A DNA stretch of 64,000 nucleotides. Origin: Escherichia coli. Its GTDB lineage: Bacteria > Pseudomonadota > Gammaproteobacteria > Enterobacterales > Enterobacteriaceae. The position numbers and the translations under genes are program-made. The stretch lies in the NCBI RefSeq assembly GCF_041248615.1, contig NZ_CP158426.1; one strand, given 5' to 3'. Positions 1,613 to 18,523 of the stretch are shown one piece after another. The notes beneath the pieces were generated by a model. It was not told the origin of the DNA, did no database searches, and was given only the letters and a program-made list of their open reading frames with translations. Position 1 is the stretch's first letter; each line of letters starts with the position of its first letter.

Positions 1613-1632
1613 ATCAGCCTCCTTTTGCTTAA

Positions 1633-1836: not shown

Positions 1837-1888
1837 ATTTACGAAATTTATTTAGATATATCTGATTACTATCACGAAGGCGATAACA

Positions 1889-2653
1889 ATGAATAACTCC
1901 CCCCGCTACCCGCAGCGCGTTCGCAATGATCTGCGCTTCCGTGAACTGACTGTGCTACGCGTTGAGCGTATTAGCGCCGGTTTTCAGCGCATTGTCCTTG
2001 GCGGCGAGGCGCTGGACGGTTTTACATCGCGCGGCTTTGACGATCACAGCAAACTCTTCTTTCCTCAATCTGATGCTCACTTTGTGCCGCCAACGGTAAC
2101 GGAAGAGGGTATCGTCTGGCCGGAAGGACCACGCCCACCGTCGCGTGACTATACGCCGCTGTATGACGAACTACGCCATGAACTGGCGATTGATTTCTTT
2201 ATTCACGAAGGTGGCGTCGCCAGCAGCTGGGCAATGCAGGCGCAACCGGGCGATAAACTTACGGTGGCAGGTCCGCGCGGTTCGCTGGTGGTGCCAGAGG
2301 ATTACGCGTATCAGCTGTATGTCTGCGATGAATCCGGAATGCCCGCACTGCGCCGCCGCCTGGAAACGTTGAGCAAACTTGCCGTTAAACCGCAAGTTAG
2401 CGCACTGGTTAGCGTGCGGGATCACGCCTGCCAGGATTATCTCGCGCACCTTGATGGTTTTAATATCGAATGGCTGGCGCATGATGAGCAGGCGGTAGAT
2501 GCGCGTCTGGCGCAGATGCAAATCCCTGCCGATGATTACTTCATCTGGATAACCGGCGAAGGCAAAGTCGTTAAGAATTTAAGCCGCCGCTTTGAAGCGG
2601 AACAGTATGATCCACAGCGGGTACGTGCAGCGGCTTACTGGCACGCAAAGTAA
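1889..2653 (+). CDS. yqjH: Siderophore-interacting ferric reductase YqjH (NfeF)
   Basis: 254-aa ORF; FAD-binding siderophore-interacting protein family; K-12 synteny. Confidence 0.9.
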   Translation: MNNSPRYPQRVRNDLRFRELTVLRVERISAGFQRIVLGGEALDGFTSRGFDDHSKLFFPQSDAHFVPPTVTEEGIVWPEGPRPPSRDYTPLYDELRHELAIDFFIHEGGVASSWAMQAQPGDKLTVAGPRGSLVVPEDYAYQLYVCDESGMPALRRRLETLSKLAVKPQVSALVSVRDHACQDYLAHLDGFNIEWLAHDEQAVDARLAQMQIPADDYFIWITGEGKVVKNLSRRFEAEQYDPQRVRAAAYWHAK

Positions 2654-2660
2654 CTGATAT

Positions 2661-2700
2661 ATAAAAAGAAAAAGGCTGATGATTTCTCGTCAGCCTTTGC
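2661..2700 (-). terminator. Hairpin plus T-run (minus strand) immediately 3' of the tRNA fragment; likely the original ileX terminator, also closing yqjH
   Basis: aaaggctgatga / tcgtcagccttt stem with T-run on the minus strand (A-run 2661..2670 on plus). Confidence 0.5.
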
Positions 2701-2706
2701 TATATC

Positions 2707-2753
2707 TGGTGGCCCCTGCTGGACTTGAACCAGCGACCAAGCGATTATGAGTC
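2707..2753 (-). repeat. attR: displaced 47-nt 3' fragment of tRNA-Ile2 (acceptor/T-arm/anticodon-stem 3' side)
   Basis: Matches 43/47 nt of the intact tRNA at 51123..51169; homology stops abruptly at 2753. Confidence 0.85.
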
Positions 2754-2879
2754 ATGAGGCAAGTTCGTTCTATATTGTTTTTGTTTGTTCGTGATTGCTT
2801 TATTAGTTGTTTGTAATCAATAAATTATGTGATTTTCCCTGTCTCCGCTTGGTTCCGTTTTTTCTTCATTGTACGATCG

Positions 2880-2903
2880 TTACCTGACCCATTACCTGAC
2901 CCA
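2880..2903. repeat. 24-bp direct repeat TTACCTGACCCATTACCTGACCCA (left copy), 47 bp upstream of int
   Basis: Identical 24-mer at 51043..51066; contains an internal tandem of ACCTGACCCA. Confidence 0.8.
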
Positions 2904-2949
2904 AAATCACGAGTTATTCTGATTGTTACTGGTTTAGAAAAGAGGTTCT

Positions 2950-4266
2950 ATGGCCGTCAATCTTACTGAAACAGCCATCCGAGCATTGAAAGCAAAAAAG
3001 ACATCGTTCTATGTCTGGAGCAACAGCTCTCAACGTGGCACTGGACGACTTGGTGTCAAAGTTCAGCCTTCTGGCAGCAAGATTTTCTATTTCCGCTATT
3101 ACGTGGAAAAAGGGAAAAAAGAAAGATTCATTCAATTGGGTATATGGCCTGAGATGAAACTGGCCACAGCGAATGAACTGGCAAAAAAGTATGGTGCCTG
3201 GCTCATTGAAGGAAAGGCTCCCCAGGCAGAACTGGAACGACAACAGTTTGCAGAACAGCAGCGGATACAACTCCATCAATCACAGGGCTCATTTGAAGCA
3301 TTGATTCATGGTTATGTTAACAAAATGAAAATTGATAATAAGAGGACATGGCAGGATGTTCTGAAACGCCTTGAAAATGAATGCTATACAGTGATCCCCC
3401 GTGAAACTAAAGCTAAAGATGTGACTTCCGGACAGATTAAACATATCCTGGCCGGGATCATTCAGCGCGGTGCTGTGGTTCACTCTAACCGGATCCGTTC
3501 TTACCTGATGGCTGCATTTAACTATGGACTGAAAGCAGATAACGATCCGATGAACACAAGTGTAGGGATTACTTTTGGGCTGGAGGCAAATCCGGTGTCA
3601 GTGATACCGAAACAGTCATCTGCTGAAAAAGTCGGTGATACCTGGCTGACACTTGAAGAGTTGCGTTTTCTAATGGAACATTTTGCTGAAGCAACCAACG
3701 TTGGATTATTGATGCAACATTTGATCCGATTCTGTATCTATACCGGAGGGCAACGTCCTTTCGAAATGATCGCCAGTCAGTGGTGTGATGTTGATTTTCA
3801 ACAAAAAACGCTGCTGGTGACTGCTGATGTCTCTAAAAATAAACGAGAGCATTTGATACCGTTGACTGAATCAGCATTACAGGAATTATCCTGTGTGCAG
3901 GAGTTAACAAAAGAAAAATCCAGCCCTTACATTTTTCCACTTTCGACTAATGGTAAGCGTCCGGTTCGTACGGACAGTCTGGCTCGCGCTATCATGTATT
4001 TCCGGGCTTTTAATCCTGACTTTAAAATTTTTACAGCACGTGACTTACGTCGGACCTGTAAAACGTTAATGGGAGAAGCTGGGATCAGTAAGGAAATCCG
4101 CGATCGTATTCAAAATCATGCGTTGAACGATGTCAGTTCAAAACATTATGATCGATACGATTATTTGCCAGAAAAACGCAGAGCACTTGAGATCTGGGAG
4201 GACCGGGTTAATAACTATCAACAGCAAACAGGCAATAATGTTGTCAATCTGTTTGGCAGAAGGTGA
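2950..4266 (+). CDS. P4-like tyrosine integrase (N-terminal arm-binding domain plus C-terminal catalytic domain)
   Basis: 438-aa ORF; N-terminus MAVNLTETAIRALKAKK...; C-terminal R...HxxR...Y catalytic residues (DLRRT, NHAL, SKHYDRYDY). Confidence 0.9.
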   Translation: MAVNLTETAIRALKAKKTSFYVWSNSSQRGTGRLGVKVQPSGSKIFYFRYYVEKGKKERFIQLGIWPEMKLATANELAKKYGAWLIEGKAPQAELERQQFAEQQRIQLHQSQGSFEALIHGYVNKMKIDNKRTWQDVLKRLENECYTVIPRETKAKDVTSGQIKHILAGIIQRGAVVHSNRIRSYLMAAFNYGLKADNDPMNTSVGITFGLEANPVSVIPKQSSAEKVGDTWLTLEELRFLMEHFAEATNVGLLMQHLIRFCIYTGGQRPFEMIASQWCDVDFQQKTLLVTADVSKNKREHLIPLTESALQELSCVQELTKEKSSPYIFPLSTNGKRPVRTDSLARAIMYFRAFNPDFKIFTARDLRRTCKTLMGEAGISKEIRDRIQNHALNDVSSKHYDRYDYLPEKRRALEIWEDRVNNYQQQTGNNVVNLFGRR

Positions 4267-4395
4267 GGGAGTTCCTGGTTGCTGTACGAATTGTGTACAA
4301 TTGATGGGTATTGTTGATGCACTTGGTTCTTGTATTGTTTACTATAATTATTGAGGTAAATTTTCGTGCCGGTATTACTCAGAGGGGATTCAAAA

Positions 4396-4992
4396 ATGGC
4401 TGTAATTCCAATGTCTTACTCCCCTGCTACTGTAGCTCGTCGTTTTTCGATACTGGATGGAGTAACTATTCAGGGCGTGCTTTACCAGATCATCTGGGAT
4501 CCAAAGACTCCGTTTGCTGCGGTAATCGAAGCTGCACCTTCTGTTATTGATGGTGATGTTCGCCATAAGGTTGTTGCCACTCTGGAGCTTCAGCGTCGTC
4601 CCCGGCTTGAAGGCGTGTTTGTCCAGAAATTCTGGGAAGAACAGGATGTTGCTCAGATTGAAGGGATTGTTGTCGATGGCGCTGTACGTGATGTTGGTCT
4701 TGCAACGTTTGTTTATGAAACGATAGTCACAAAAGCGGGCGTTGTACTATTAAGTGATAACGAGCAATATGAAGGAGGTAAAGCTCTCTGGCAGCATATT
4801 GCGCGTCGTTCAACGAATCTGAAGGTGTTTATTTTAGATACTGATTCCGCACGGTATTACCCGTTTGATGGCGAACGGATCAGTTATGACGGGAAAAGCA
4901 TCCCGGAATCAGAAATCTGGAGTGAACATCCTGAGCGAAACAGACACGCTGTCGTTCTTGTGGCTGAATCTGTTAATGGTAAAGCCGCATAA
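4396..4992 (+). CDS. Hypothetical protein (198 aa from ATG 4396; ORF open from 4366)
   Basis: Long ORF with plausible RBS (gagggg) upstream of ATG 4396; no recognisable motif. Confidence 0.45.
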   Translation: MAVIPMSYSPATVARRFSILDGVTIQGVLYQIIWDPKTPFAAVIEAAPSVIDGDVRHKVVATLELQRRPRLEGVFVQKFWEEQDVAQIEGIVVDGAVRDVGLATFVYETIVTKAGVVLLSDNEQYEGGKALWQHIARRSTNLKVFILDTDSARYYPFDGERISYDGKSIPESEIWSEHPERNRHAVVLVAESVNGKAA

Positions 4993-5074
4993 TTTGCTGA
5001 GTGTCTCATTTTTTGAGATCTTGCTGGAAAGTCTCCTTTGGGGATAGCGAACTGCTATCCCCTTTCTCAGTGAG

Positions 5075-6679
5075 TTACTGTTCGACCAGACATTTTCCCC
5101 ATAAAGGTCGTATCGAGTATCTATCTTCGCTATATGGATTTATTTTATTTTTTTCCCTCTGTGCTATCAGCAACGTGTCGATCTCATCCTTAATAATGTG
5201 TTGAACTGCTTGACGGTAACGGTTAAGCGAAGTGTCACTGATATCTTGTGGAAGTTGTAGACTGCCATCTGCCTTGACAAGTTCATTCACACCATCTTTA
5301 ATTCTGCGTCCCTGACCATCAGGTATACCTTCATTCAGATCATAGCCTTTTAGTCCTGCAAGACGAATATTCACGTCAATCTTTTCTGTACGTATCTTTT
5401 TGTTACTTACCAACAGAATTTTATTGGCGTTATACCATTTTTCAAATATTTCCAGTTGTTTCATGATGTTTGTGAAGTTATTCAGTTCGCTCCTGAATTC
5501 AATAGATTTTCTAATTTTACGCTCTTTTGCATCAATGTTTATTCCTGGATAATTTATTTCCATTTTTAACGGTTCTGTGTATGCCTGTTGCAGGCAATCA
5601 GCAAGATTCATTGCTGCATCCTGCAGGGTATTGGTATAAATCAGTTTCAGAAGTTCATCACGCTGTATAGTGATTTGACAATAGTCTTTTTCCCATGCGG
5701 TGGTGTTTTCAATCGTGTCACTTTCATCGGAAATAATTGTTGTGAACTTCCAGGTGTAACGAATAAAATCATTTCCTTTAAAATATTGCACTAATTTATT
5801 TAACCATTCATATATTTCCAGAGCATAAAGTTTAACGTATCCATCATATATTATCTTTGTTGCATTTTTGTTGGCTAGCGAAAACATTTTGTCCACGAAT
5901 TCTGTACGCCCGATTGTTAGCAATTGTTTTCTAAGTTTACTCACATCGTTAGTATCTGGTTTCTCACAATTCCAGGGACTTTTGTATTCATTTTCAAAAG
6001 GAGAAAGCCATTCAGGAATCTCTGTTTCTGAGTGATAGCAGTTGTTAATAGCCAAACCAAGGGTTCTGGCAAGTATCGCTGATTCATCAATTTGATGGTA
6101 TCGGTTCAGTTGTTCCAGTAATTCTTTAGTACATGAGTGCGCAACAGAAAGATCCTGATGGCAATATCCTTGTCGAACCAGAGCGGGAAGTGGTGAGCAA
6201 TGAGCTTTACAATCTGTCAGAATATTGAACAAATCGTTTCTGACGAATTCTTCCATCTCAGGTGTTTTCCAGCCACCACTATTTTGGCCGACAAATTTTG
6301 CTGTTGGTTCCCTGTTCATATCTCCCCAGGTTTTCAGGCTGACGAGTCTGTTATCAAAACCATTGTATAAATGGCACATAACCTGAAAAGCAGCATACAG
6401 ATCTTTAGATAGTGGATTATCGGTCTCACTTATGGAGTAGTTCTCTCTGTTTTTCTCTAAAATACTTTGGAGTTTTGTGTTAGCGCGTAATGCCGAGAGA
6501 ATCCGATGTTGTTCATCAAACCAAGGACGATATTCTGGATCCAGATACAATCTGCGTGCTTTGAAAATGAGTAGAAGCAACTGTTCGGAAACAGCTTCAT
6601 GTATGTGGGGAAACGGCATGGAGGTGCCGGATAAAACACGATAGTACGGGTGGTTTGTTTTTACCTTTTTAGTTACCAT
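5075..6679 (-). CDS. Hypothetical 534-aa protein, AT-rich orphan; candidate accessory or defence gene
   Basis: 1.6-kb uninterrupted ORF in strongly AT-rich DNA, where chance ORFs this long are improbable; no Walker A, HTH or nuclease motif identified by eye. Confidence 0.55.
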   Translation of the reverse strand: MVTKKVKTNHPYYRVLSGTSMPFPHIHEAVSEQLLLLIFKARRLYLDPEYRPWFDEQHRILSALRANTKLQSILEKNRENYSISETDNPLSKDLYAAFQVMCHLYNGFDNRLVSLKTWGDMNREPTAKFVGQNSGGWKTPEMEEFVRNDLFNILTDCKAHCSPLPALVRQGYCHQDLSVAHSCTKELLEQLNRYHQIDESAILARTLGLAINNCYHSETEIPEWLSPFENEYKSPWNCEKPDTNDVSKLRKQLLTIGRTEFVDKMFSLANKNATKIIYDGYVKLYALEIYEWLNKLVQYFKGNDFIRYTWKFTTIISDESDTIENTTAWEKDYCQITIQRDELLKLIYTNTLQDAAMNLADCLQQAYTEPLKMEINYPGINIDAKERKIRKSIEFRSELNNFTNIMKQLEIFEKWYNANKILLVSNKKIRTEKIDVNIRLAGLKGYDLNEGIPDGQGRRIKDGVNELVKADGSLQLPQDISDTSLNRYRQAVQHIIKDEIDTLLIAQREKNKINPYSEDRYSIRPLWGKCLVEQ

Positions 6680-7458
6680 AATGTTAAATTCTTCCGTCTA
6701 TTGCATAGCTGTTTCCAGTAGAGAAACTTGATACAGTCCTTTGTCAGGACATTGATACAGAGTTAACAGCCTCTACGAAATGGGAATCAGTTATGCAGTG
6801 GCATTATACGATGCTGAATCTAATACGATATCCTTAGCGTTTATTCCTGATTTTTTTACGAGCATTCCCTTTTGTTGCATATTGCTCAGGACGCAAATGA
6901 TTTTACGGTTATAGCCCTCTACAGTCACGTCACTTTCATCTGAAAATATGTATCGTTTTCATTCAATTATTATCTTTTGTCTGCACTTTAGCTTTAGAAA
7001 GTTGGCAAAAATCAACTCCCTCTTACAAGTTCTATTATCGCCAGAAGATAATTTTGTGAACTTCGTCACGTTTTCAAACTAATGTTGTGGGGGCTTTTCT
7101 GGGGAGAATTTTTGGTCACTACCCCTCCTCTTGATATCATAGATTATAACAAGATTTTTTTTGTTTTTGTCTGCATAAAATAACCTACGAATATTGTGAT
7201 TTTGATTTTTATTTTGTATACCAAAAAGCATTGTTTAAGTTATTTTTATATTGTGACTTTCTTTGTTGTTATTGTGTTATTAGAAGTCAGTTAATTAAAT
7301 CATTTCTCGCAATTTGATTTCTTGGTTGTGCAAATGTATTGTTTTGCTCGTGAGTTGCTGGTGCTGTTCAACAGCATACCACTACAGATAGATGTAGTGA
7401 TTTGAGCAGCTCACATGCATATACAATCTGAAAATCATGAATATATAAGGAGAGCAAT

Positions 7459-7686
7459 ATGTGGAAGCCGTTAAGAGATGAGAACCGTTTATCAATTTTG
7501 AAGATCTATGGATACACCTGTGACAGACTGGTACGAGAAAAGGAACGCCAGAAAATTACGTCTATTTCTCGTTCACAAGCCTGGAAACTGGAACGTGAAG
7601 GAAAATTCCCGCCACGTAAAACTATTGGAAAGAAATCCTGTGGGTGGTTATTAAGTGATCTATTGTGGTGGATTAGTCAGTATTAA
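7459..7686 (+). CDS. AlpA-family phage regulatory/excisionase-like DNA-binding protein
   Basis: 75 aa; AGGAG RBS; HTH plus EREGKFPPRK..G.....W...L..W motif typical of AlpA/Phage_AlpA. Confidence 0.7.
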   Translation: MWKPLRDENRLSILKIYGYTCDRLVREKERQKITSISRSQAWKLEREGKFPPRKTIGKKSCGWLLSDLLWWISQY

Positions 7687-7748
7687 CCTTATAGTATCAG
7701 AATAATATATATTTCTATATTTTAATTTTATAATTAAAAAGGAGTTTC

Positions 7749-8495
7749 ATGATGAAACGTGTCTCTTTCTCTCTTGCAGAAACATATGAAGCTGATGTAA
7801 TTAAAAAGTATCAGCATTTAAAAAAATGCTCATTTTCAGCAGCGATTAAAGAGTGTTTAAAGCTAGGGGCTCCTGTTTTAAACAGGATAAATGAAAATAT
7901 TGCTGCTATAACTGATATAGAGGATAAGCTACGTCAGTTTTTTAATGAGGAACCATTTGTGCAACGGACAAAGCCTGAAATAACAAAAGGAGAGTTTTTT
8001 CATAGCATTTATAAATCGCATATCAAATATGAATATGATGTTCTCGATAGAAAGATATTTCCTCATGAAAGCACCAGAAATGCTATGGGAGTTGCAGAGA
8101 AAAAGGGAATTAAAGAGAATGCGACCTTAATGCTGGAATATTATAAAGTTGAGAAGGCAATTTGTATTTACACGAACAGAAAAGTTTCCCATACCCTGAA
8201 TCGTGCAGGAGGGTTTTATAAAACCATTCTGATTAAAACCAGTGTTTTTGGGGATTATTTTTTTGACTTTTGCAATTCAGTTTGCCTGCCGATAGATGAG
8301 TTGATTGAGTATGGTACGAAAGAAACAGTGAGGCGACATCAGATTCGTAGTACAGGATTTTGTACTTTTCATATTCCGATTTTTTATATCAATAATAAGG
8401 CTGTAATAGTGCCTGTTCTGAGAACAGAGGAAGTTTCACAAAGTTCCAGAACAGGTGGAGATGTTATTATTATTAACCCATTTGAAGATGAATGA
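7749..8495 (+). CDS. Hypothetical 248-aa protein (possible N-terminal ribbon-helix-helix-like segment)
   Basis: ORF with AAGGAG RBS in AT-rich DNA; N-terminus KRVSFSLAETYEADVIKKY resembles RHH regulators; remainder unassigned. Confidence 0.5.
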   Translation: MMKRVSFSLAETYEADVIKKYQHLKKCSFSAAIKECLKLGAPVLNRINENIAAITDIEDKLRQFFNEEPFVQRTKPEITKGEFFHSIYKSHIKYEYDVLDRKIFPHESTRNAMGVAEKKGIKENATLMLEYYKVEKAICIYTNRKVSHTLNRAGGFYKTILIKTSVFGDYFFDFCNSVCLPIDELIEYGTKETVRRHQIRSTGFCTFHIPIFYINNKAVIVPVLRTEEVSQSSRTGGDVIIINPFEDE

Positions 8496-8716
8496 TTATG
8501 GCCCGCGTAGATTTATTCATAACCCAGAAATCGTGGTGTAAATGATGAACAGAAACCGCTTTCTGAGGTTAAAGAGAGCAATCATTACCCGGGAGTGGCC
8601 AACTCTTTTATCGAGTACTTTTCCGATGTATCTGGAGAGCCTCCCTTAGAAAAGAGTAATGCGACTCAGGAAAAAACAGGTTCAATAATTAATTCATGAC
8701 ACCAGTTTGAGGCATT

Positions 8717-9277
8717 ATGGCGAGTTTTGCATACATAGACTCTGAAAAATGGTCAAAACTTAATCGCTTAAAATCCATGATTCAGAGATATTTTAAAGAA
8801 CCACTATTGCAGTTAACAGGCGAATTGGGTCGCCCGGATTATACTCTGGCAGACAGAAAACGGTTAGTTCGACTCCTGACGCAGGATATGCAAAGGGGTG
8901 ATATTCTGATTACTAAATCGTTAACTTGTTTTGGTAATACGCCGGAAAAAATACAGGAGGTTTTATCTTTAAGTATCAGACAAGGTATTAATATTTGCTT
9001 TTTTACGTCATCAGAGTTGCCGGATGGTGATGATATTCCTGTGGTACTCACCGGGATGATTTTACCTACAGATATTAGAGGAAAAATTCCCGACATCAGT
9101 ATCCGGAAAATTAAAAGAAAACCAGGAAGGAAAGAAGGGAGTATTCATAGTAAAAATATCAGACAGTTGAAATTGCAGGGGTTCAGTCAGTCACAAACAG
9201 CCAGAAAATTAAGCATCAGTTTATCCACTGTAAAAAGACACTGGGATAAAGGTATTGTTGATCTAACTGCAGAGTAA
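8717..9277 (+). CDS. Small serine-recombinase-like protein (resolvase/invertase size and layout, divergent)
   Basis: 186 aa; N-terminal YIDSE segment, central GDILITKSLTCFGNTPEKIQEVLSLSIRQGINICF resembling resolvase core, C-terminal HTH (SQSQTARKLSISLSTVKRHW). Confidence 0.4.
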   Translation: MASFAYIDSEKWSKLNRLKSMIQRYFKEPLLQLTGELGRPDYTLADRKRLVRLLTQDMQRGDILITKSLTCFGNTPEKIQEVLSLSIRQGINICFFTSSELPDGDDIPVVLTGMILPTDIRGKIPDISIRKIKRKPGRKEGSIHSKNIRQLKLQGFSQSQTARKLSISLSTVKRHWDKGIVDLTAE

Positions 9278-9658
9278 CATTTTATAGTCCTTGTAGCTAT
9301 TGGCAATGGAGTTATAAATACATGTGCGTTGGATAGGTAATATATATTATATCTGTGATGTATAGTATATGTGTAATGATGGATATGATGTACTAATAGA
9401 GCTAATGGTATTCTGATACCAAATAATTAGTTGTGTGTAGATCATAACTCTGTTTAATGTTTTAGAACGTTCTAATGTAACTGTGTAACATCATCCTGTT
9501 CTCTAATGTAACAATAGGCAGTAGCGTTTTTCTTAATTGACGCCCAGAGGGTTATATATCCCTCTGGGAACTACTGATACGAATATTAATATCTGCTTCT
9601 GTTGTGTATTGGGTAGGTTAACTATTAGCTTATCTCTGAAAGCAAAAGGAATATTAAC

Positions 9659-10273
9659 ATGATTACGATTGAAACTCTTTACGGTGAATGTCATGAGGCT
9701 CACGGGTTAAAAATAAGAAACCAGGTGAATAACCTCTTCCAGAAACATCCCAGAATAACGGCAATACGGGTGGATCTCCATTATCCTCCCGTGATTGACA
9801 ACGGGGATACCATTACCTGTTTTCCTAACCTGAGTCCCGGAGAGATATCTCGTTTCCGTAACTCGCTGAATGCGAAAATTAATGCAGATCAACACCGTAA
9901 AAAACAACAAGGCAAACGCACCTACGCAACGTCGGTTTGTATTATCTGGGCGAAAGAATATACGCAGTCCTTTAAATGTCATTATCACGTCTGCCTTTTT
10001 TTTAACAAAGACGCCTATTACCACCTGGGAGACTATGAGCGCTCTGACACCCTGAGAGGGTTAATTACCGGAGCCTGGTACAGTGCCTTAGGGTTAGAAC
10101 TGGAAGATCACCAGGGACTAGTTCATTTCCCTGCTAATGGACGTTACATCCTGGATATTAACGATCCTGATTTCCCTGAGCAATATCAGCGCTTATTGGC
10201 ACGTCTGGATTATCTGACGAAGCTCGACACTAAAGCATCAGGCCAGCGTAACTTTGGCTACAGCGGTTTTTGA
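9659..10273 (+). CDS. HUH-motif protein (rolling-circle Rep-like / YagK-YfjJ inovirus-Gp2-like family)
   Basis: 204 aa; HUH-type motif CHYHVCLFF and downstream Y-x-x-K (DYLTK); family assignment from memory only. Confidence 0.45.
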   Translation: MITIETLYGECHEAHGLKIRNQVNNLFQKHPRITAIRVDLHYPPVIDNGDTITCFPNLSPGEISRFRNSLNAKINADQHRKKQQGKRTYATSVCIIWAKEYTQSFKCHYHVCLFFNKDAYYHLGDYERSDTLRGLITGAWYSALGLELEDHQGLVHFPANGRYILDINDPDFPEQYQRLLARLDYLTKLDTKASGQRNFGYSGF

Positions 10274-10300
10274 CCTATTGTAACTGTAAGGTGATTTATT

Positions 10301-10867
10301 ATGTATACAGAATCAAACGTTAAGCTTTCCTGTAACGCCCTCTGGCAAAAGTATGTCCTTGCAACTCTGTATCGGGCTGCAGCTACACATCCTAAAATTA
10401 AATTATTACAATTTAAATTAATACCTTGCCCAGGTATGAACAAGGCAATTCCCTCTCTGATGGCTGATTTTACTGGTGAACTGCATAGACTAATTTCTGA
10501 ATATTTGCAGTGCAAGCGACGTAAAGATAAATCTGTTGAGCCCGCCCCTTTATATTATCTCTGGAGTAGGGAAGCTGTGGCTAACGATACCACTCCTTAT
10601 CTTATGGTACTGCTACTTAATAACGATGTCTGGTGTAAGAGTCGTGAGGTGGTGGCTCTCAGAAATCTGATTGAGCAGGCGTGGGGAAAAGTATTGGGTG
10701 AAGATAACTCCATTACACATCTGGTTGTGTATCCTGAAGTGCTGTCGTTGGTATTTGATGCAGCTAACACATACAACGCTGAGCCTGGTGTACTGGAACA
10801 GACGGCCCAGGCTTACATTGAATCGCATGGTGCCATTGAACGTCATCTTGGGTGTAGTGACTTTTAA
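10301..10867 (+). CDS. Hypothetical 188-aa protein, probably co-transcribed with the HUH gene
   Basis: ORF 27 bp downstream of the previous gene with RBS taaggtga. Confidence 0.45.
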   Translation: MYTESNVKLSCNALWQKYVLATLYRAAATHPKIKLLQFKLIPCPGMNKAIPSLMADFTGELHRLISEYLQCKRRKDKSVEPAPLYYLWSREAVANDTTPYLMVLLLNNDVWCKSREVVALRNLIEQAWGKVLGEDNSITHLVVYPEVLSLVFDAANTYNAEPGVLEQTAQAYIESHGAIERHLGCSDF

Positions 10868-10977
10868 CGACGTCAGGTGATGCATAAGGGCCTTTCGCTG
10901 AGAGGCCCTGTTTACACAATTAAATAAGTCGAGCCCGACCAGCAATTTTGACGTTGACGGCAGGATTATTGAGGGGC

Positions 10978-11062
10978 AATCAATGTGTTCTTCGGCAGCG
11001 ATTACGGTAGTGAACGGACCTGCTGTCTGAATGGTATCGATCCGCAAGCGTATCTGCGCCAT
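10978..11062 (+). mobile_element. IS66-family transposase (TnpC) 3' remnant, truncated by IS2
   Basis: In-frame translation FFGSDYGSERTCCLNGIDPQAYLRH resembles the conserved IS66 TnpC C-terminal region; ends at the IS2 boundary. Confidence 0.35.
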
Positions 11063-12151
11063 TGGATTTGCCCCTATATTTCCAGACACCTGTTATCACT
11101 TAACCCATTACTGGCCCGCTGCCGTAGATATTCCCGTGGCGAGCGATAACCCAGTGCACTATGCGGATGCCATTCGTTATAATGCTCGAACGCCTCTGCA
11201 AGGTTCTTTGCTGCCGTTAACCCGTCTGGTTTGGGCATGATACTGATGTAATCACGCTTTATCGTTTTCACGAAGCTCTCTGCTATGCCGTTACTCTCCG
11301 GACTCCGCACCGCCGTGTTCTTCGGTTCAAGTCCCAGCATCCGGGCGAACTGGCGTGTTTCATTAGCCCGGTAGCATGAACCATTATCCGTCAGCCACTC
11401 CACTGGAGATGTCGGAAGCTCGCTGCCGAAGCGGCGTTCCACCGCTCCCAGCATGACGTCCTGTACTGTTTCACTGTCGAAGCCGCCCGTAGTGACCGCC
11501 CAGTGCAGTGCCTCACGGTCACAGCAGTCCAGCGCGAACGTGACCCCCAGTTTTTCTCCGTTATCACAGCGGAACTCGAACCCGTCAGAGCACCATCGTT
11601 GATTGCTTTCTTTCACGGCCACTTTGCCAGTATGTGCCCGTTTCGATGGCGGTACAGCGGTTTTTCGCTCAAGCAACAGCGCATTCTGGCGCATGATCCG
11701 GTAAACACGTTTGGCATTGATAGCAGGCATACCATCAAGTTCGGCCTGTCTGCGAAGCAGCGCCCATACCCGACGATAACCATACGTGGGCAGCTCTCCG
11801 ATAACATGGTGTATACGGAGAAGCACATCCGTATCATCTGAGTGACGGCTGCGGCGACCATCTTTCCAGTCATCGGTTCGTCTGAGAATGACGTGCAACT
11901 GCGCACGCGACACCCGGAGACAACGGCTGACTAAGCTTACTCCCCATCCCCGGGCAACAAGGGAGACCGTCATTCCCGGTTCAAAGCTCTGCTGAACAAT
12001 AGCGATCTTTTCCTGTGTAGTACGCCGTCTGCGTTTCTCCGGCCCTAAGACATCAATCATCTGTTCTCCAATGACTAGTCTAGAAACTAGTATTAAGACT
12101 ATCACTTATTTAAGTGATATTGATTGTCTGGAGATTCAGGGGGCCAGTCTA
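11063..12151 (-). mobile_element. IS2 deletion derivative (about 1.09 kb instead of 1.33 kb)
   Basis: IS2 terminal sequences at both ends (revcomp TAGACTGGCCCCCTGAATCTCCAGACA at 12122..12151; TGGATTTGCCCCTATATTTCCAGACA at 11063); internal deletion of about 240 bp. Confidence 0.85.
11074..12105 (-). CDS. IS2 transposase, in-frame InsC(N-terminal 36 aa)-InsD fusion created by the internal deletion
   Basis: 343-aa ORF: [36 protein letters not shown] joined directly to [18 protein letters not shown]... (InsD). Confidence 0.7.
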
Positions 12152-12485
12152 TATATCAATTAATCATTAGTTTAAAAGCTTGTTCAACTGCATACATCAT
12201 TAGCGTTTAAGCCAGTGAACAGGAAGTTTACTGGCTTAATTACAGTAATATAGTGTATCGCTATGCTCACTGAGTCTTAGATCTCCACCGTCGGTCTAAT
12301 ATTCGCACTCCTGCTAACAACCGGTAATCAAATCGTCCTCCGGTATTGAAAGTTAATACACAAATCAGGATGATGGAGGCTCATACTGGTACAGCGCGAC
12401 CACTTATGCAGGCGTCTCTGTCAGGTTTGTTGCCCGGATCACCCGCATCAGGGACAGGGCTGTTCAGTTATCCGCAGGAGAAAAT

Positions 12486-13496
12486 ATGTCACTCAAGGCT
12501 ATCGCCGCCGAACTCGGGATCTCTGTCACCACAGTCAGCCGGGCGCTTGGCGGATTTTCGGACGTTTCCGCTTCGACCCGTGCACGTGTAGAAGCGGAAG
12601 CTCGGCGTCGTGGTTATCGCCCGAATACCCTGGCAAGACGTCTCAAAACCGGTAAAACCGATGCGGTCGGCCTGGTCTTCCCTGAACATGCTGTACTGTT
12701 CAGCAGTAGTGTGTTTGTGGATATGGTCAGTTGTATCAGCCGGGAACTGGCCCGCCATGATATTGACTTACTGCTGATAGCCGATGATGAACGGGCTGAC
12801 AGCCACAGCTATATGCGTCTGGTCGAAAGCCGCCGGGTTGATGCCCTTATCGTGGCGCACACGATGGATAATGACCCGCGTCTTACACACCTGCAGGAGG
12901 CCGGTATTCCGTTTCTGGCACTCGGTCAGGTGCCGTCCGGTCTTCCCTGTGCCTGGTTTGACTTTGATAACCATGCAGGAACCTGGCAGGCCACACAGCA
13001 CCTGATTGCCCTGGGCCATCAGCGAATTGCCCTGCTGAGTGAGGACAACTCCCGTGCCTATGTCACTGCACGACGTCAGGGATGGCGCGATGCCCTGAGT
13101 GAACATGGTCTGCCTGAGACCTGGCTACGCCGGGTCTCTCCCACCCGACGCTCAGGTTTCCAGGCAGTGACTGAGTTAATGTCACTTCCGCTTCCCCCGA
13201 CGGCCATTATTACCGACAGTGACCTGATCGGTGATGGCGCGGCCATGTCGCTGCAGTTATCCGGTCATCTGTCCGGAGAGGATGCCGTCTCTCTTGTGGT
13301 TTATGATGGTCTGCCGCAGGACAGTATTATTGAACAGGATGTGGCTGCAGTTCTTCAGTCAACACGACATCGCGTCGGTCGTCAGATTGCCGACATGATA
13401 CGCCAGCTGGTCACGAATGTTTCACCTGAAATGCTACAAGTACTCTGGCAGCCGGAATTTCATCCTGGCAAGACAACGCTTGCTCCCTCCGCCTGA
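12486..13496 (+). CDS. rafR: LacI-family repressor of the raffinose operon
   Basis: 336 aa; N-terminal HTH MSLKAIAAELGISVTTVSRAL; immediately upstream of alpha-galactosidase/permease/invertase genes. Confidence 0.8.
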   Translation: MSLKAIAAELGISVTTVSRALGGFSDVSASTRARVEAEARRRGYRPNTLARRLKTGKTDAVGLVFPEHAVLFSSSVFVDMVSCISRELARHDIDLLLIADDERADSHSYMRLVESRRVDALIVAHTMDNDPRLTHLQEAGIPFLALGQVPSGLPCAWFDFDNHAGTWQATQHLIALGHQRIALLSEDNSRAYVTARRQGWRDALSEHGLPETWLRRVSPTRRSGFQAVTELMSLPLPPTAIITDSDLIGDGAAMSLQLSGHLSGEDAVSLVVYDGLPQDSIIEQDVAAVLQSTRHRVGRQIADMIRQLVTNVSPEMLQVLWQPEFHPGKTTLAPSA

Positions 13497-13518
13497 TTTT
13501 TAATCCCGCTCACAAATT

Positions 13519-13551
13519 CGAATCGTTTCGGTTGCTATCCGAAACGATTCG
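13519..13551. promoter_or_regulatory. Paired operator-like inverted repeat upstream of rafA (CGAATCGTTTCGG - 7 bp - CCGAAACGATTCG)
   Basis: Perfect 13-bp inverted repeat; each arm is itself a near-palindrome of LacI-family operator type. Confidence 0.45.
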
Positions 13552-13589
13552 GATCAACAGTAAGGCATACCCGAAAACGGAGATGTCTT

Positions 13590-15716
13590 ATGGAACCGAT
13601 GTACCGCAGGCTGACCAGTCCCCACTCAGACCTGATTATTAAAACCCACCCGTATGCAGAGATTGTCTGGTGGGGATCCACCCTGAAACACTTTTCACCG
13701 GATGACTGTATCAGCCTGGAAAGGCCGGTTGCGAATGGTCGTCTGGATACCGACACCCCACTGACGCTGATGGCCGAAAACGGCGCGGGACTTTTTGGCT
13801 CGCCGGGGCTGGAGGGACACCGCAACGGGCTGGATGCGTCCCCTGTGTTCCGTACCATCAGCGTGGTACAGGCCGGAGAATCACTCACCCTGACCAGTGA
13901 GGATGCAGTGGCGGGTCTGCGCATGGTCAGTGAACTGGTGCTGACATCGTCCGGTGTGCTGAAGATGCGTCATGCCCTGACGAACCTCCGTGAAGGGGAC
14001 TGGCAGGTGAACCGCTTCGCCATCACGCTCCCTGTGGCTGAAAGGGCAGAGGAAGTCATGGCCTTCCACGGACGCTGGACTCGTGAGTTTCAGCCGCACA
14101 GGGTCCGTCTCACACATGACGGTTTTGTGCTGGAGAACCGCCGGGGCCGCACGTCCCATGAGCATTTTCCGGCACTGATTGCCGGTGCCCCCGGTTTCTC
14201 AGAACAGCAGGGCGAGGTGTGGGCCGTACATCTGGGCTGGAGTGGCAACCATCGCATGAAATGTGAGGTCAAAACTGACGGACGGCGTTACCTCCAGGCG
14301 GAAGCACTGTGGATGCCCGGAGAAAAAGCCCTGAAGAAGGATGAGACCGTGTACACGCCGTGGCTGTACGCCAGCTATTCCCCGGAGGGGCTCAATGGTA
14401 TGAGTCAGCAGTACCACCGTTTTCTGCGCGATGAAATCATCCGTTTTCCTGAGCAGAAACCCCGTCCGGTGCACCTCAATACCTGGGAAGGTATTTATTT
14501 TGACCACGACCCGAACTACATCATGCAGATGGCCGGACGTGCGGCAGCGCTTGGCGTTGAACGTTTCATTATCGACGACGGCTGGTTTAAGGGACGCAAT
14601 GATGACCATGCGGCTCTGGGCGACTGGTATCTGGATGAACAGAAGTATCCGGACGGACTGATGCCGGTGATTAACCATGTGAAATCACTCGGCATGGAGT
14701 TCGGTATCTGGGTGGAACCGGAAATGATTAACCCGGACTCTGACCTCTTTCGCCGCCATCCTGACTGGGTACTGTCAATGCCGGGGTACACACAACCAAC
14801 CGGGAGACATCAGTATGTTCTCAACCTGAACATTCCTGAGGCCTTTGCTTACATTTATGAACGCTGTTTATGGCTGCTGGGCGAACACCCAGTTGACTAT
14901 GTGAAATGGGACATGAACCGCGAGCTGGTCCAGGCCGGGCATGAAGGTCGGGCGGCGGCGGACGCGCAGACCCGTCAGTTTTACCGGCTGCTGGATCTCC
15001 TGCGCGAACGTTTTCCCCGTGTTGAGTTTGAGTCCTGCGCTTCCGGCGGTGGACGTATCGACTTTGAGGTTCTGACCCGCACGCACCGCTTCTGGGCTTC
15101 TGACAACAATGACGCCCTGGAGCGCTGCACCATACAGCGTGGCATGAGTTACTTTTTCCCGCCGGAGGTTATGGGGGCACACATCGGTCATCATCGCTGC
15201 CATGCCACCTTCCGGCAGCACAGCATTGCCTTTCGCGGTCTGACGGCCCTGTTCGGTCATATGGGACTGGAGCTGGATCCGGTAACGGCCGGAGAAGAGG
15301 AATCCGCCGGTTACCGCCGCTATGCCTCGCTCTACAAAGAATGGCGGCAGCTTATCCACACGGGCACCCTATGGCGGGTGGATATGCCGGATGCGGCGAC
15401 ACAGGTGCAGGGGGTGGTCAGCCCGGATCAGTCGCAGGCGCTCTTCCTGGTGAGCCAGCTTGCCATGCCGGATCACACCCTGCCGGGTGCTCTACGTTTT
15501 CCGGGGCTGGCACCACAGGCCCGTTACCGGCTTCGTGTTGTTGACCATCCGGATATTCAGCTGGTCGGTGAAGGCGGGCATACCATGCGCAGGCTGCCCG
15601 GCTGGATGAACCAGACCTCCGACATCAGTGGGGAATGGCTGGCGCAGGCCGGTATTCAGCTTCCCGTACTGGATCCGGAAAGCGCCATGCTGATTGCCCT
15701 TGAACGTTTGGCATAA
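13590..15716 (+). CDS. rafA: Alpha-galactosidase (GH36)
   Basis: 708 aa; GH36 melibiase-type catalytic region (DDGWF...WVEPEM); raf operon context. Confidence 0.85.
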   Translation: MEPMYRRLTSPHSDLIIKTHPYAEIVWWGSTLKHFSPDDCISLERPVANGRLDTDTPLTLMAENGAGLFGSPGLEGHRNGLDASPVFRTISVVQAGESLTLTSEDAVAGLRMVSELVLTSSGVLKMRHALTNLREGDWQVNRFAITLPVAERAEEVMAFHGRWTREFQPHRVRLTHDGFVLENRRGRTSHEHFPALIAGAPGFSEQQGEVWAVHLGWSGNHRMKCEVKTDGRRYLQAEALWMPGEKALKKDETVYTPWLYASYSPEGLNGMSQQYHRFLRDEIIRFPEQKPRPVHLNTWEGIYFDHDPNYIMQMAGRAAALGVERFIIDDGWFKGRNDDHAALGDWYLDEQKYPDGLMPVINHVKSLGMEFGIWVEPEMINPDSDLFRRHPDWVLSMPGYTQPTGRHQYVLNLNIPEAFAYIYERCLWLLGEHPVDYVKWDMNRELVQAGHEGRAAADAQTRQFYRLLDLLRERFPRVEFESCASGGGRIDFEVLTRTHRFWASDNNDALERCTIQRGMSYFFPPEVMGAHIGHHRCHATFRQHSIAFRGLTALFGHMGLELDPVTAGEEESAGYRRYASLYKEWRQLIHTGTLWRVDMPDAATQVQGVVSPDQSQALFLVSQLAMPDHTLPGALRFPGLAPQARYRLRVVDHPDIQLVGEGGHTMRRLPGWMNQTSDISGEWLAQAGIQLPVLDPESAMLIALERLA

Positions 15717-15755
15717 AAGGACCGGAGCCGGTCACGGCTCCCTGCACTCAGTCCC

Positions 15756-17048
15756 GTGAGGATAACAATAATGAATACTGTCAGTACTCATAAAAACCCC
15801 GATTTCTGGATATTTGGTCTGTTCTTTTTTCTCTACTTTTTCATCATGGCAACCTGTTTCCCGTTTCTGCCCGTCTGGCTGTCAGACATTGTGGGGCTGA
15901 GTAAAACGGATACCGGGATTGTTTTTTCATGCCTCTCCCTGTTTGCCATCAGCTTCCAGCCGCTGCTGGGGGTCATCTCAGACCGTCTTGGCCTGAAAAA
16001 ACACCTGATGTGGATCATCAGCCTGCTGCTGGTCCTGTTTGCACCGTTCTTTCTGTACGTTTTTGCGCCGCTGCTGCGGTTCAACATCTGGGCCGGAGCA
16101 CTGAGCGGCGGGATTTTTATCGGCTTCGTTTTTTCTGCGGGAGCCGGTGCCATCGAAGCCTATATTGAACGTGTCAGCCGCAGCAGCGGATTTGAATACG
16201 GTAAGGCCCGGATGTTCGGCTGTCTGGGCTGGGCGCTGTGTGCCACCACGGCAGGGCTGCTTTTCAACGTGGATCCGTCCCTGGTATTCTGGATGGGGTC
16301 CGGCTGCGCATTGCTGCTGGTCCTTCTGGTGGCGCTGGCGCGTCCCGGAACCAGTCAGACAGCGATGGTCATGAATGCGCTGGGTGCCAACTCGCCCGTG
16401 ATTTCCGCCGGAATGGTGTTCAGTCTGTTTCGTATGCGTCAGATGTGGATGTTCGTGCTTTACATGATTGGGGTGGCCTGCGTCTATGACGTGTTTGACC
16501 AGCAGTTTGCCACGTTCTTCCGTGCATTTTTTGACACGCCGCAGGCGGGGATCCGGGCATTTGGTTTTGCCACCACGGCTGGCGAGATTTGCAATGCCAT
16601 CATCATGTTCTGCTCCCCCTGGATAATCAACCGCATTGGTGCCAAAAACACACTGCTTGTCGCGGGTCTGATTATGACCATCCGCATCACAGGGTCGGCC
16701 TTTGCCACCACGGCTACTGAAGTGGTGATCCTGAAAATGCTGCATGCCCTTGAAGTCCCATTCCTGCTGGTTGGTGCGTTCAAGTATATCACCGGCGTGT
16801 TTGATACCCGGCTGTCGGCCACCATTTATCTGATTGGCTTTCAGTTCTCCAAACAACTGGCGGCGATATTCCTCTCAACCTTTGCAGGTCACCTGTATGA
16901 CCGCATGGGGTTCCAGAACACCTATCTGGTTCTGGGCGGTATTGTCCTTGCGGTCACCGTGTTATCGGCTTTCACCCTGAGCAGTACCCGTAAAACGGCT
17001 GCCCCGTCAGCAGAAACCGCTACAGCACAGACGGAGGTTCGCTTATGA
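15756..17048 (+). CDS. rafB: Raffinose permease, LacY-family oligosaccharide:H+ symporter (true start possibly ATG 15771)
   Basis: 430 aa, LacY-like (FWIFGLFFFLYFFIMATCFPFLPVWL...). Confidence 0.85.
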   Translation: MRITIMNTVSTHKNPDFWIFGLFFFLYFFIMATCFPFLPVWLSDIVGLSKTDTGIVFSCLSLFAISFQPLLGVISDRLGLKKHLMWIISLLLVLFAPFFLYVFAPLLRFNIWAGALSGGIFIGFVFSAGAGAIEAYIERVSRSSGFEYGKARMFGCLGWALCATTAGLLFNVDPSLVFWMGSGCALLLVLLVALARPGTSQTAMVMNALGANSPVISAGMVFSLFRMRQMWMFVLYMIGVACVYDVFDQQFATFFRAFFDTPQAGIRAFGFATTAGEICNAIIMFCSPWIINRIGAKNTLLVAGLIMTIRITGSAFATTATEVVILKMLHALEVPFLLVGAFKYITGVFDTRLSATIYLIGFQFSKQLAAIFLSTFAGHLYDRMGFQNTYLVLGGIVLAVTVLSAFTLSSTRKTAAPSAETATAQTEVRL

Positions 17049-18475
17049 AACAGCGTCTTGCCTCTGCACAGGTTGCACTTGATACACTCCGCGCCCGTCG
17101 TGGTGATACCTGGTACCCGGTTTTTCATCTGGCTCCACCTGCCGGATGGATGAATGATCCGAACGGGCTTATTTATTTCAGCGGTCGCTATCACGCATTC
17201 TTTCAGCACCATCCGGCAAGTGAACATCAGGGGCCGATGCACTGGGGACATGCCACCAGTCCGGACATGCTGCACTGGCAGCATGAGCCGGTTGCGCTGG
17301 CACCCGGTGATGAATATGACCGGGATGGCTGTTTTTCCGGCAGCGCAGTGGACGACAACGGCGTGCTGTCGCTTATCTACACCGGTCATCTCTGTCTGGA
17401 GGATCGGGGGGATGACAGCATCATCCGCGAAGTCCAGTGTCTGGCAACCAGCCGTGACGGCATTCACTTTGAGAAACAGGGCTGCGTGCTGACGCCACCG
17501 GAAGGCATCATGCATTTCCGTGACCCGAAGGTCTGGCGGGAAGGGGGATACTGGTGGATGGTTATCGGCGCGCGGGATACCTCTGACACCGGTCAGGTGC
17601 TGCTGTATCGCGGCACATCCCTGCGGGACTGGCGCCAGGAACGGGTTCTAGCGCAGTCGGCAGCCGGAGAAAGCTATATGTGGGAATGTCCGGACTTTTT
17701 CCGCTGTGGCGACCATCACTGGCTGATGTTCTCCCCGCAGGGGATGACGCCCGGCGGATACCGGTTCCGCAACCGCTTTCAGAGCGGAGTTTTACCGGGT
17801 CACTGGCAGCCGGGGGCCGCCTTTGCCCTGAGCGGGGCATTTGAAGAACTGGATCACGGTCATGATTTTTATGCCCCGCAGTCCCTGGTCGCGGAGGACG
17901 GACGGCGCATCATCATGGCCTGGATGAATATGTGGGACTCCCCGATGCCTACAAAGCGTGAGGCCTGGGCCGGATGTCTGACCCTGCCGAGGGAACTTTT
18001 TGAACGCCATGGTCGTCTGTGTCAGCGTCCGGTTCGCGAAGCCGAATCCCTTCGCGGGACGTGCCAGCCGTTACACCCTGTAAGGCTCAGTGGCACGCAG
18101 TTGCTGGCTGAGGACGCACAGGCCGTGGAACTGGTGCTGACGTGGCATACCCTCGACAGTCAGGCAGAGCATTACGGCATCCACCTGGGAGACGGGCTCC
18201 GGCTGTATGTGGATAACCAGGCAGGACGGCTGGTGCTTTGGCGTCACTACCCGGATGAGGGGCTGGACGGTTACCGCAGTATCGCGCTGCCTGGCGCAGA
18301 ATATCTGACGCTACGGGTTTTCCTGGACCGTTCATCGGTGGAAGTGTTCGTTAACGATGGCGATGCCACCCTGTCCAGCCGTATTTACCCGCAGCCCGGA
18401 ACCCGCCGGTTGTCGCTATATGCAGCTCACGGCGAGGCTGTGCTGACGGACGGCTCACTGTGGACGCTGGCCTGA
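17045..18475 (+). CDS. rafD: Sucrose/raffinose hydrolase (GH32 invertase)
   Basis: 476 aa; GH32 N-terminal motif WMNDPNGL; overlaps rafB stop by 4 bp. Confidence 0.85.
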   Translation: MKQRLASAQVALDTLRARRGDTWYPVFHLAPPAGWMNDPNGLIYFSGRYHAFFQHHPASEHQGPMHWGHATSPDMLHWQHEPVALAPGDEYDRDGCFSGSAVDDNGVLSLIYTGHLCLEDRGDDSIIREVQCLATSRDGIHFEKQGCVLTPPEGIMHFRDPKVWREGGYWWMVIGARDTSDTGQVLLYRGTSLRDWRQERVLAQSAAGESYMWECPDFFRCGDHHWLMFSPQGMTPGGYRFRNRFQSGVLPGHWQPGAAFALSGAFEELDHGHDFYAPQSLVAEDGRRIIMAWMNMWDSPMPTKREAWAGCLTLPRELFERHGRLCQRPVREAESLRGTCQPLHPVRLSGTQLLAEDAQAVELVLTWHTLDSQAEHYGIHLGDGLRLYVDNQAGRLVLWRHYPDEGLDGYRSIALPGAEYLTLRVFLDRSSVEVFVNDGDATLSSRIYPQPGTRRLSLYAAHGEAVLTDGSLWTLA

Positions 18476-18486
18476 AATAATTCCAC

Positions 18487-18512
18487 TGCCGTCGGTGACG
18501 GCAGTACTTTCG
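18487..18512 (+). terminator. Hairpin downstream of rafD
   Basis: ctgccgtc ggtg acggcag followed by a T-containing tract. Confidence 0.4.
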
Positions 18513-18523
18513 GTTCACCCGTA

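Follow-up and report, generated by a model that had tools for sequence, protein, structure and literature searches.

A stretch of 64,000 nucleotides of Escherichia coli DNA (contig NZ_CP158426.1 of RefSeq assembly GCF_041248615.1), referred to here as the window, carries two adjacent and co-oriented open reading frames (ORFs) inside a chromosomal island. The first, ORF1 (9659-10273, plus strand), encodes a single-domain protein of 204 amino acids (aa) that belongs to the YagK/YfjJ family and is very probably a homologue of the Rep class of HUH proteins, and the second, ORF2 (10301-10867, plus strand), encodes a diverged YagK-like paralogue of 188 aa, predicted to be catalytically dead. Upstream of both lies a conserved 17-mer, TTGGATAGGTAATATAT (9329-9345, plus strand, 330 nt 5' of ORF1), which is a candidate nick or binding site for an HUH protein, or else a promoter or operator. 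The role that is tentatively proposed here for ORF1 is that of a nickase acting on this upstream element. An initial annotation of the locus, based on the sequence, had already recorded both ORFs, their co-orientation and two motifs of the first protein, CHYHVCLFF and DYLTK, all of which were found in place, the motifs being residues 107-115 and 184-188 of ORF1, respectively.

The ATG of ORF1 is preceded, at about 9 nt, by the Shine-Dalgarno sequence AAGGA. The encoded protein matches the Pfam family PF11726 (YagK_YfjJ_C, formerly named Inovirus_Gp2) over its full length (i-Evalue 4.6e-55, model positions 2-170 of 170), as well as phrog_25019 (1.5e-59), and is identical to RefSeq WP_000628304, labelled "inovirus Gp2 family protein"; a weak match to PF23343 (REP_ORF2-G2P) covers residues 77-122 (5.8e-4). 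Its identity is 59% to YagK and 39% to YfjJ of E. coli K-12. Searched exhaustively, 1.84 billion cluster representatives yielded 599 relatives of ORF1 at E<=1e-3, and the YagK/YfjJ family amounts to about 600 clusters at 50% identity. Neither ORF1 nor ORF2 has a match in NCBIfam or PADLOC, and sequence searches of the PDB, made with the single ORF1 protein and with a profile of the family, returned no relative. ORF1 and its family are already catalogued and are not novel: yagK and yfjJ are listed among the uncharacterised "y-ome" genes of K-12, and in the literature no paper characterising the YagK/YfjJ family was found, the other mentions being annotation labels.

ORF1 as an HUH protein of the Rep class

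The HUH enzymes carry a motif I, a motif II (the HUH itself, which binds metal) and a motif III (the catalytic Tyr, in a YxxK/H that is always on an alpha-helix); their chemistry is common to Rep and Mob proteins, the order of the motifs being I-II-III in the Reps and III-II-I in the Mob relaxases (PMC5714925). When ORF1 is aligned with 136 full-length relatives that share 30-55% identity with it (137 sequences in total), the sole invariant columns are E100, H108, H110, W140, Y185 and K188, and residue 109, between the two invariant histidines, is Y, F or W throughout (137/137). Because of this invariance, CHYHVCLFF and DYLTK are not chance occurrences. E100, H108 and H110 are, as judged from conservation, the putative metal ligands, and Y185, within Y185-x-x-K188, is the putative nucleophile. 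The other candidate tyrosine, Y163, is substituted in 30 of the 137 sequences and, since only one Tyr is invariant, ORF1 is placed in the 1Y (single-tyrosine) class. In addition, a near-invariant R37-x-D39-L40 lies on the strand 32-41 and differs from the canonical uuTu pattern of motif I. With R37/D39 as the candidate motif I, the motifs of ORF1 are ordered I-II-III (R37/D39, then H108/H110, then Y185) and not III-II-I as in Mob proteins, which speaks against the relaxase-like enzyme that had been put forward as one possibility by the initial annotation.

A further Tyr at alignment position 181, four residues before Y185 (Y-R-x-S-Y-L-A-K), is present in 40 of the 137 members. This spacing resembles that of the two-tyrosine Reps and is absent from ORF1, YagK and YfjJ; the family may comprise both 1Y and 2Y forms.

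The relationship with known initiators is supported by several comparisons. Most of the relatives (116 of 137) match Pfam REP_ORF2-G2P on their own at E<=1e-3, and the other families that recur, all weakly, are also of rolling-circle initiators (RepSA, Rep_1, Phage_GPA and Rep_OBD). The hhalign comparison with a microvirus Rep (93% probability) sets E100 and H108-Y-H110 opposite SEYGG...PHYHGVLFF; extending without gaps, it sets the microvirus YVTKYIAK opposite the Y163 region of ORF1, not Y185, and a C-terminal profile alone pairs SYLAK with KYIAK, not significantly. The correspondence of the His and Tyr residues with the HUH motifs, on which the initial annotation had depended, is therefore upheld by alignment for motif II, motif III being assigned by conservation and topology only.

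Moreover, the AlphaFold2 model of ORF1 (predicted local distance difference test, pLDDT, 94.3; predicted template-modelling score, pTM, 0.90) places H108 and H110 on the beta-strand 107-116, E100 on the strand before it and Y185 on the alpha-helix 172-187. The best structural matches of the model are HUH Rep nucleases, namely those of parvovirus NS1, adeno-associated virus (AAV) Rep, SIRV1 ORF119, Helraiser, RepB and microvirus VP4, and the matches that Foldseek gave among viral models, most of them with a probability of 1.00, are to microvirus VP4/Rep proteins, a parvovirus NS1 and an 'Inovirus Gp2'. ORF1 thus presents the motif II, the motif III (YxxK on a helix) and the Rep fold of the HUH enzymes, in agreement with the HUH, Rep-like character first ascribed to it, and its closest relatives are the microvirus-type and "ORF2/G2P"-type Reps.

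ORF2, a diverged paralogue

ORF2 had been regarded as an orphan. It matches PF11726 (7.7e-10) and is 23% identical to ORF1, being a paralogue of it that lacks the HUH: PYL stands in place of HYH (P for H108, L for H110). W97, E100, N116 and W140 are kept, and H108, H110, K188, K192, R37 and D39 are lost. The detectable relatives of ORF2 are all at least 73% identical to it and come mostly from E. coli, many of the copies being truncated. In the intact copies the ratio of nonsynonymous to synonymous substitution rates (dN/dS) is 0.16-0.31, similar to the 0.17 of ORF1, all of these being rough values as they derive from few substitutions. Judged by its sequence, ORF2 is best taken for a paralogue that is catalytically dead and yet maintained; a role as non-catalytic partner or regulator is probable.

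Copies of this kind are also found elsewhere. A second 188-aa protein without the HUH, encoded on a Klebsiella plasmid, has likewise lost both His and the Tyr and is only 23% identical to ORF2, which makes it doubtful that the two are orthologues. Islands of the pheV type in E. coli and IncHI/IncF plasmids of Klebsiella have a layout in common (L012 6168-8747; L013 5933-8747; L017 2968-5684), which comprises an active-type YagK-like gene, in some cases AlpA, two 'putative zinc ribbon' genes, in some cases a stub of ORF1, the YagK-like gene of 188 aa that lacks the HUH and, in many cases, DUF2913. The layout points to HUH-dead YagK copies as a recurrent component of the module. In the pheV-type islands, such as that of CFT073, ORF1 is reduced to a stub of 65 aa and ORF2 is intact. 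Furthermore, in many genomes the shared segment consists of ORF2 and no more than the 3' third of ORF1, which points to a recombination breakpoint inside ORF1.

Such stubs, together with the interruption of ORF1 in some other strains, the many truncated copies of ORF2 and the truncation of the backbone by an IS3-family element (11074-12105), might indicate that both genes are decaying, functionless remnants of a phage or plasmid replication gene, and the initial annotation had indeed considered ORF1 a possible relic. This is very improbable in view of the dN/dS values of both genes, the catalytic residues of ORF1, all of them intact, and the persistence of invariant motifs through the roughly 600 clusters of the family; in addition, positions 7400-11000 of the window, full-length ORF1 included, are 100% identical in many complete genomes.

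The DNA upstream of ORF1

The stretch between the preceding gene and ORF1 (9278-9658) has a guanine plus cytosine (GC) content of 33%, and the 17-mer that it contains is present in a single copy in the window when up to 3 mismatches are allowed. The same or a near-identical motif is found 60-350 nt upstream of YagK-subfamily genes, on the coding strand, in about ten lineages; the proteins of these have 37-59% identity, and their flanking DNA cannot be aligned. It lies 5' of both K-12 yagK and K-12 yfjJ (the latter in the version CTTGATAGGTAATATAT), at a copy from E. coli that has yfjI in front of it (L014) and at the metagenomic relatives L007 and L008, as well as at fresh loci outside the discovery set (pNDM-CIT, which is L016, and L022, L025 and L027/L028), where it is the best or tied-best match of the whole locus when both strands are considered.

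An exact scan for the 17-mer in one genome per species (100,044 species) gave 42 matches, close to the chance expectation, most of which come from AT-rich phyla. A strong YagK-family ORF follows directly in four cases, three in the mutually related Cedecea, Tenebrionibacter and a contig of a metagenome-assembled genome, and one in Proteus; the four proteins share 48-56% identity with ORF1, and their flanking DNA cannot be aligned. The other 38 are background from AT-rich genomes, and the information lies solely in the pairing of the 17-mer with YagK-family ORFs. The upstream neighbour varies across the motif loci (YagL-like, YfjI, HTH_36 or unknown), and the motif is absent 5' of a distant subfamily of about 190 aa, despite AlpA being nearby, so that its distribution follows the YagK lineage rather than the gene preceding it. 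In the same line, L014 (positions 1-1116, compared with window 7749-9277) has a YfjI-family (DUF3987) gene in place of the YagM-like and YagL-like genes of the window, a swap which implies that the partner was exchanged by recombination and that the motif and ORF1 stay together.

The motif resembles known origins of rolling-circle replication. One is the annotated viral-strand origin of phiX174, CAACTTG|ATATTAATAAC (at A4306, the bar marking the nick), and the other is the nick site of Rep_1 double-strand origins, CTTGATA (PMC10378824), which is contained exactly in the yfjJ-type motif. Moreover, imperfect direct repeats of 18 nt (2.3 copies; 9337-9378, plus strand; Tandem Repeats Finder) overlap the motif of the window and are iteron-like. 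The same program found clearer arrays in relatives, of 9 nt x 8 in L014 and of 17 nt x 3.4 copies (100% match) in L008, a metagenomic AlpA-DUF3987-YagK locus. In the latter (3685-3741), the perfect 17-nt direct repeats (GTATTATTAGACTAAAG, three and a half copies) begin inside the motif and have the look of iterons.

A nick-site hairpin had also been anticipated in the adjacent DNA. A hairpin does exist, CCCAGAGGG-TTATATAT-CCCTCTGGG (9543-9568, plus strand, 91 nt 5' of ORF1), with a 9-bp stem and an AT loop, and it was rejected as a conserved nick site: it is absent or degenerate in relatives, even in L014, where the DNA of ORF1 is some 95% identical to that of the window. Around the motif itself no hairpin is consistent. 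In L025 (3733-3775, from one genome of 5.9 Mb), the motif, TTGGTATTATATAT, makes up one arm of an inverted repeat that is long and AT-rich and has a fold z-score of -4.3; in no other lineage could the motif be presented by a cruciform. Finally, Rfam gave no RNA family in 6600-11100.

These features may also be looked at from the side of transcription. A constitutive sigma-70 promoter, TTTAGA-16-TATAAT, has been predicted for K-12 yagK (PMC3946193), and the K-12 motif overlaps its spacer and -10 region, so that the 17-mer may be a promoter or operator instead of an origin, and ORF1 mainly a sequence-specific DNA-binding regulator of the island, for instance an autorepressor, with nicking secondary or absent. 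The -10-like core of the motif, GTA(A/T)TAT, its constant position on the coding strand at 60-350 nt from the gene and the want of a conserved hairpin would fit such a role. It is nevertheless considered unlikely, since the invariant E, HxH and YxxK of the 137 relatives are hard to explain without catalysis; furthermore, the -35 elements differ between lineages, a promoter scan found no plus-strand sigma-70-like site in 9278-9658, and origins and rep promoters commonly overlap, which makes the K-12 promoter compatible with nicking by ORF1 as well.

The island

The chromosomal-island setting stated in the initial annotation is well founded. A partial tRNA 3' end of 47 nt (2707-2753, minus strand) forms a left att-type direct repeat, and an intact tRNA with a CAT anticodon (51124-51199, minus strand; ARAGORN) marks the right end; because the 47-nt copy corresponds to the last part of the intact tRNA, the approximately 48 kb between them are bracketed as a tRNA-integrated island. 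Only paired changes in the T-stem distinguish the two 3' ends (CTGGACTTGAACCAGCG versus TTGGGTTTGAACCAACG). ARAGORN assigned the CAT tRNA to Met; the yqjH-proximal CAT tRNA of E. coli is presumably ileX (tRNA-Ile2). The integrase, the direct repeats of the tRNA 3' end and the atypical GC content (0.34-0.45 between 3 and 11 kb) are those of a tRNA-integrated island.

Its left part contains a tyrosine integrase of 438 aa (2950-4266, plus strand; RefSeq annotation), 23% identical to IntA, followed by an AlpA-family excisionase/transcriptional regulator (7459-7686, plus strand; phrog_2790, 3.1e-22; named AlpA family in CP101363), a YagM-like protein of 248 aa (7749-8495, plus strand), 31% identical to K-12 YagM and with no match in NCBIfam, PHROGs or PADLOC, and a YagL-like protein of 186 aa (8717-9277, plus strand) with a C-terminal resolvase-type helix-turn-helix, which has 36% identity with the C-terminal portion of YagL from K-12. 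The module of the window is a CP4-6-type backbone, int ... AlpA - YagM - YagL - YagK. Its equivalent in CP4-57 is alpA - yfjI (DUF3987) - yfjJ, and copies from metagenomes and plasmids repeat the arrangement AlpA - (DUF3987 or others) - YagK, in many cases accompanied by RadC and an integrase. ORF1 belongs, then, to the conserved backbone (integrase - AlpA - YagM/YagL or YfjI - YagK) of CP4-6/CP4-57-type islands integrated in tRNA or tmRNA genes.

Between the integrase and alpA there are two ORFs, of 208 aa (4366-4992, plus strand) and 534 aa (5075-6679, minus strand), with no match in NCBIfam, PHROGs or PADLOC, and a very AT-rich intergenic region of about 780 nt (6680-7458). A perfect tandem duplication, TTACCTGACCCA x2, lies at 2880-2903, some 50 nt 5' of the integrase start, and may represent arm-type integrase or AlpA binding sites. 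On the other side of the gene pair, an IS3-family transposase ORF (11074-12105, minus strand) comes immediately after ORF2, with a 78-nt pseudogene fragment (RefSeq) in between; this insertion sequence separates the backbone from a cluster (12486 onward) of a LacI-type regulator, an alpha-galactosidase, an MFS transporter and a GH32 hydrolase. Separate low-GC blocks occur at 28-29 kb and at 36-42 kb inside the island, and more than one element may have gone into the 48 kb.

In strain EC-107, the homology to the window starts at 2704 (L001 4306-21601 against window 2704-20000, 99.95% identity over 17.3 kb). The left end of the island and its partial tRNA repeat lie there beside ypjA/ypjCB, and in the window beside yqjH. 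As these flanks differ, the element has been inserted at two chromosomal sites, which are probably the two tRNA-Ile2 genes.

Occurrence on plasmids, phages and other islands

The family has 67 plasmid matches, all on large plasmids or on mislabelled chromosome fragments, and 41 of the 67 are on conjugative plasmids. Many of the homologues being on large conjugative IncHI/IncF plasmids, and HUH chemistry being shared by Rep and Mob proteins, it might be supposed that ORF1 is a Rep-like relaxase that nicks an origin of transfer (oriT) of the island, the excised island then being mobilised by a co-resident conjugative plasmid. However, the plasmid copies sit in int/AlpA island-like insertions, the conserved module has no coupling-protein or type IV secretion system genes, and one related island that has been studied moves by phage transduction; with the motif order of ORF1 being that of a Rep, mobilisation of this kind is improbable.

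The record CP101363.1 (L002, 'Salmonella enterica plasmid pIndS102_4', 11.7 kb), with a gene 100% identical to ORF1, was considered as an excised circle and rejected, being linear and having the chromosomal flanks of the window. Window 1-11560 is matched colinearly, and the E. coli chromosomal genes for a chemotaxis protein, a PadR regulator and a siderophore-interacting protein are among the genes matched; the record looks like a mislabelled, possibly contaminating fragment of E. coli chromosome. As regards phages, a tblastn search of 50,697 phage records produced two matches, a weak one to a microvirus Rep and one to an unverified contig of 4.5 kb; the latter, 'Escherichia phage ECO111 5-P', has 3.7x coverage and was not accepted as a phage copy.

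In Pseudomonas, the tmRNA islands have a likely core composed of intY, alpA, RadC and an 'inovirus Gp2-like protein', and the islands I23, I44 and I55 excise, circularise or concatemerise, carry defence cargo and are transferred by a jumbo phage (PMC12595487). Concatemers are the product expected of rolling-circle replication, a circumstantial link.

The richness of these islands in defence genes leads to yet another possibility. AbpAB and RnlAB lie beside yfjJ, CBASS-like SAVED/ThiF genes lie beside the pNDM-CIT copy, and the Pseudomonas islands have the cargo just mentioned; given also the likeness of the motif to the nick sites of phiX174 and pC194, ORF1 might be an interference nuclease that nicks the CTTGATA-like origins of incoming microviruses, inoviruses and rolling-circle plasmids, so protecting the host or the island. 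This must be held a long shot: no PADLOC defence model is matched, the gene is in the conserved backbone and not in the variable cargo, and a conserved copy of the target beside the gene itself points to action in cis.

Proposed role of the YagK/YfjJ proteins

The role that is put forward for ORF1, with nearly but not quite even confidence, is that of an active 1Y HUH nickase of Rep topology that acts on the upstream element and starts the rolling-circle replication of the excised island, ORF2 being a non-catalytic partner. This grading applies to catalysis, the nick site and island replication, all of them inferred; the homology, the fold, the invariant residues, the purifying selection and the conserved cis element are observations. 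In the proposed sequence of events, the island would first be excised by the integrase and AlpA. ORF1, holding a divalent metal by H108, H110 and E100, would recognise TTGGATAGGTAATATAT and the adjoining short repeats 5' of its own gene and would nick one strand, Y185 becoming linked to the 5' phosphate. The free 3'-OH would then prime rolling-circle synthesis by host polymerase and a helicase, which could be the host Rep/UvrD or, in the CP4-57-type islands, the adjacent DUF3987/YfjI protein, and the product would be extra island circles or concatemers. ORF2, having lost the metal-binding histidines and the lysines, would probably act as a non-catalytic partner or regulator.

Several points weigh against this proposal. 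No published biochemical or genetic work on any member of the family was found, and motif III aligns only weakly with the catalytic Tyr of a characterised enzyme. As to the site, the motif of the window reads TTGGATA and not CTTGATA, the K-12 motif coincides with the predicted yagK promoter, and folding of single-stranded DNA around the motif in seven lineages gave no consistent hairpin, with z-scores near zero except in L025. As to the element, no small plasmid or phage was found in which a member of the family is the only Rep; the IS3-family element cuts the backbone right after ORF2, and the island of about 48 kb may no longer be mobile.

If ORF1 does nick the upstream element, this would explain how islands of this kind replicate once excised and how they come to be substrates for phage packaging. 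A wider version, which is more doubtful, takes YagK/YfjJ, TTGGATAGGTAATATAT and the repeats as a minimal rolling-circle replicon, that is, an unrecognised replication module of the widespread integrase-AlpA islands and satellites (CP4-6, CP4-57, pheV-type and Pseudomonas I55-type islands), whose concatemers could be packaged by helper phages and in which HUH-dead paralogues such as ORF2 would serve as non-catalytic partners. The interest of the matter lies in the fact that yagK and yfjJ have long been uncharacterised, and their relatives are in the backbone of integrase/AlpA islands with defence, virulence and metabolic cargo. No new family is described here; what is added is the documented set of putative catalytic residues, the Rep (not Mob) topology, the recognition of ORF2 as an HUH-dead paralogue under selection and the 17-nt candidate site, by which a vague annotation is turned into a specific and cheaply testable hypothesis.

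Comparison with known systems

The microvirus initiators (Microviridae VP4/phiX174 gpA type, and PF23343) are like ORF1 in the E...HUH block, in a motif III of YxxK type, in being among the best structural matches and in a nick-site-like motif. ORF1 differs from them in that it has less than half the size of a microvirus Rep, with an identity of only about 29% over a partial region, and is encoded in a chromosomal island without phage structural genes. In addition, the microvirus Rep that was compared has two Tyr in its motif III (YVTKY), in contrast to the one invariant Tyr of ORF1; phiX174 gpA also uses two. Also among the closest known systems are the nuclease domains of parvovirus NS1, AAV Rep, SIRV1 ORF119 and pMV158 RepB, whose structures have been solved.

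The Rep_1 initiators (pC194/pUB110) are alike in HUH chemistry, by homology, in the CTTGATA of the yfjJ-type motif and in weak Rep_1 matches in 7 of the 137 relatives, but ORF1 has not been found as the replication gene of a small plasmid and the window motif has TTGGATA. In the case of the inovirus G2P, the neighbours are different, those of ORF1 being int, AlpA, the YagM-like and YagL-like genes and the IS3-family element instead of structural and assembly genes of filamentous phages; moreover, gpII of M13/f1 has been reported to be Rep_trans-like and not HUH (PMC5714925).

The Pseudomonas islands I23, I44 and I55 resemble the island of the window in their core set and differ in the host, the attachment site and the transfer by a jumbo phage (PMC12595487). 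Finally, YagK of CP4-6 and YfjJ of CP4-57 in K-12 are alike in the full-length family match, in the synteny int ... AlpA - YagM-like - YagL-like - YagK-like and in the upstream motif, whereas they differ in the tRNA site of the island and in that no HUH-less paralogue follows downstream, the place that ORF2 occupies in the window.

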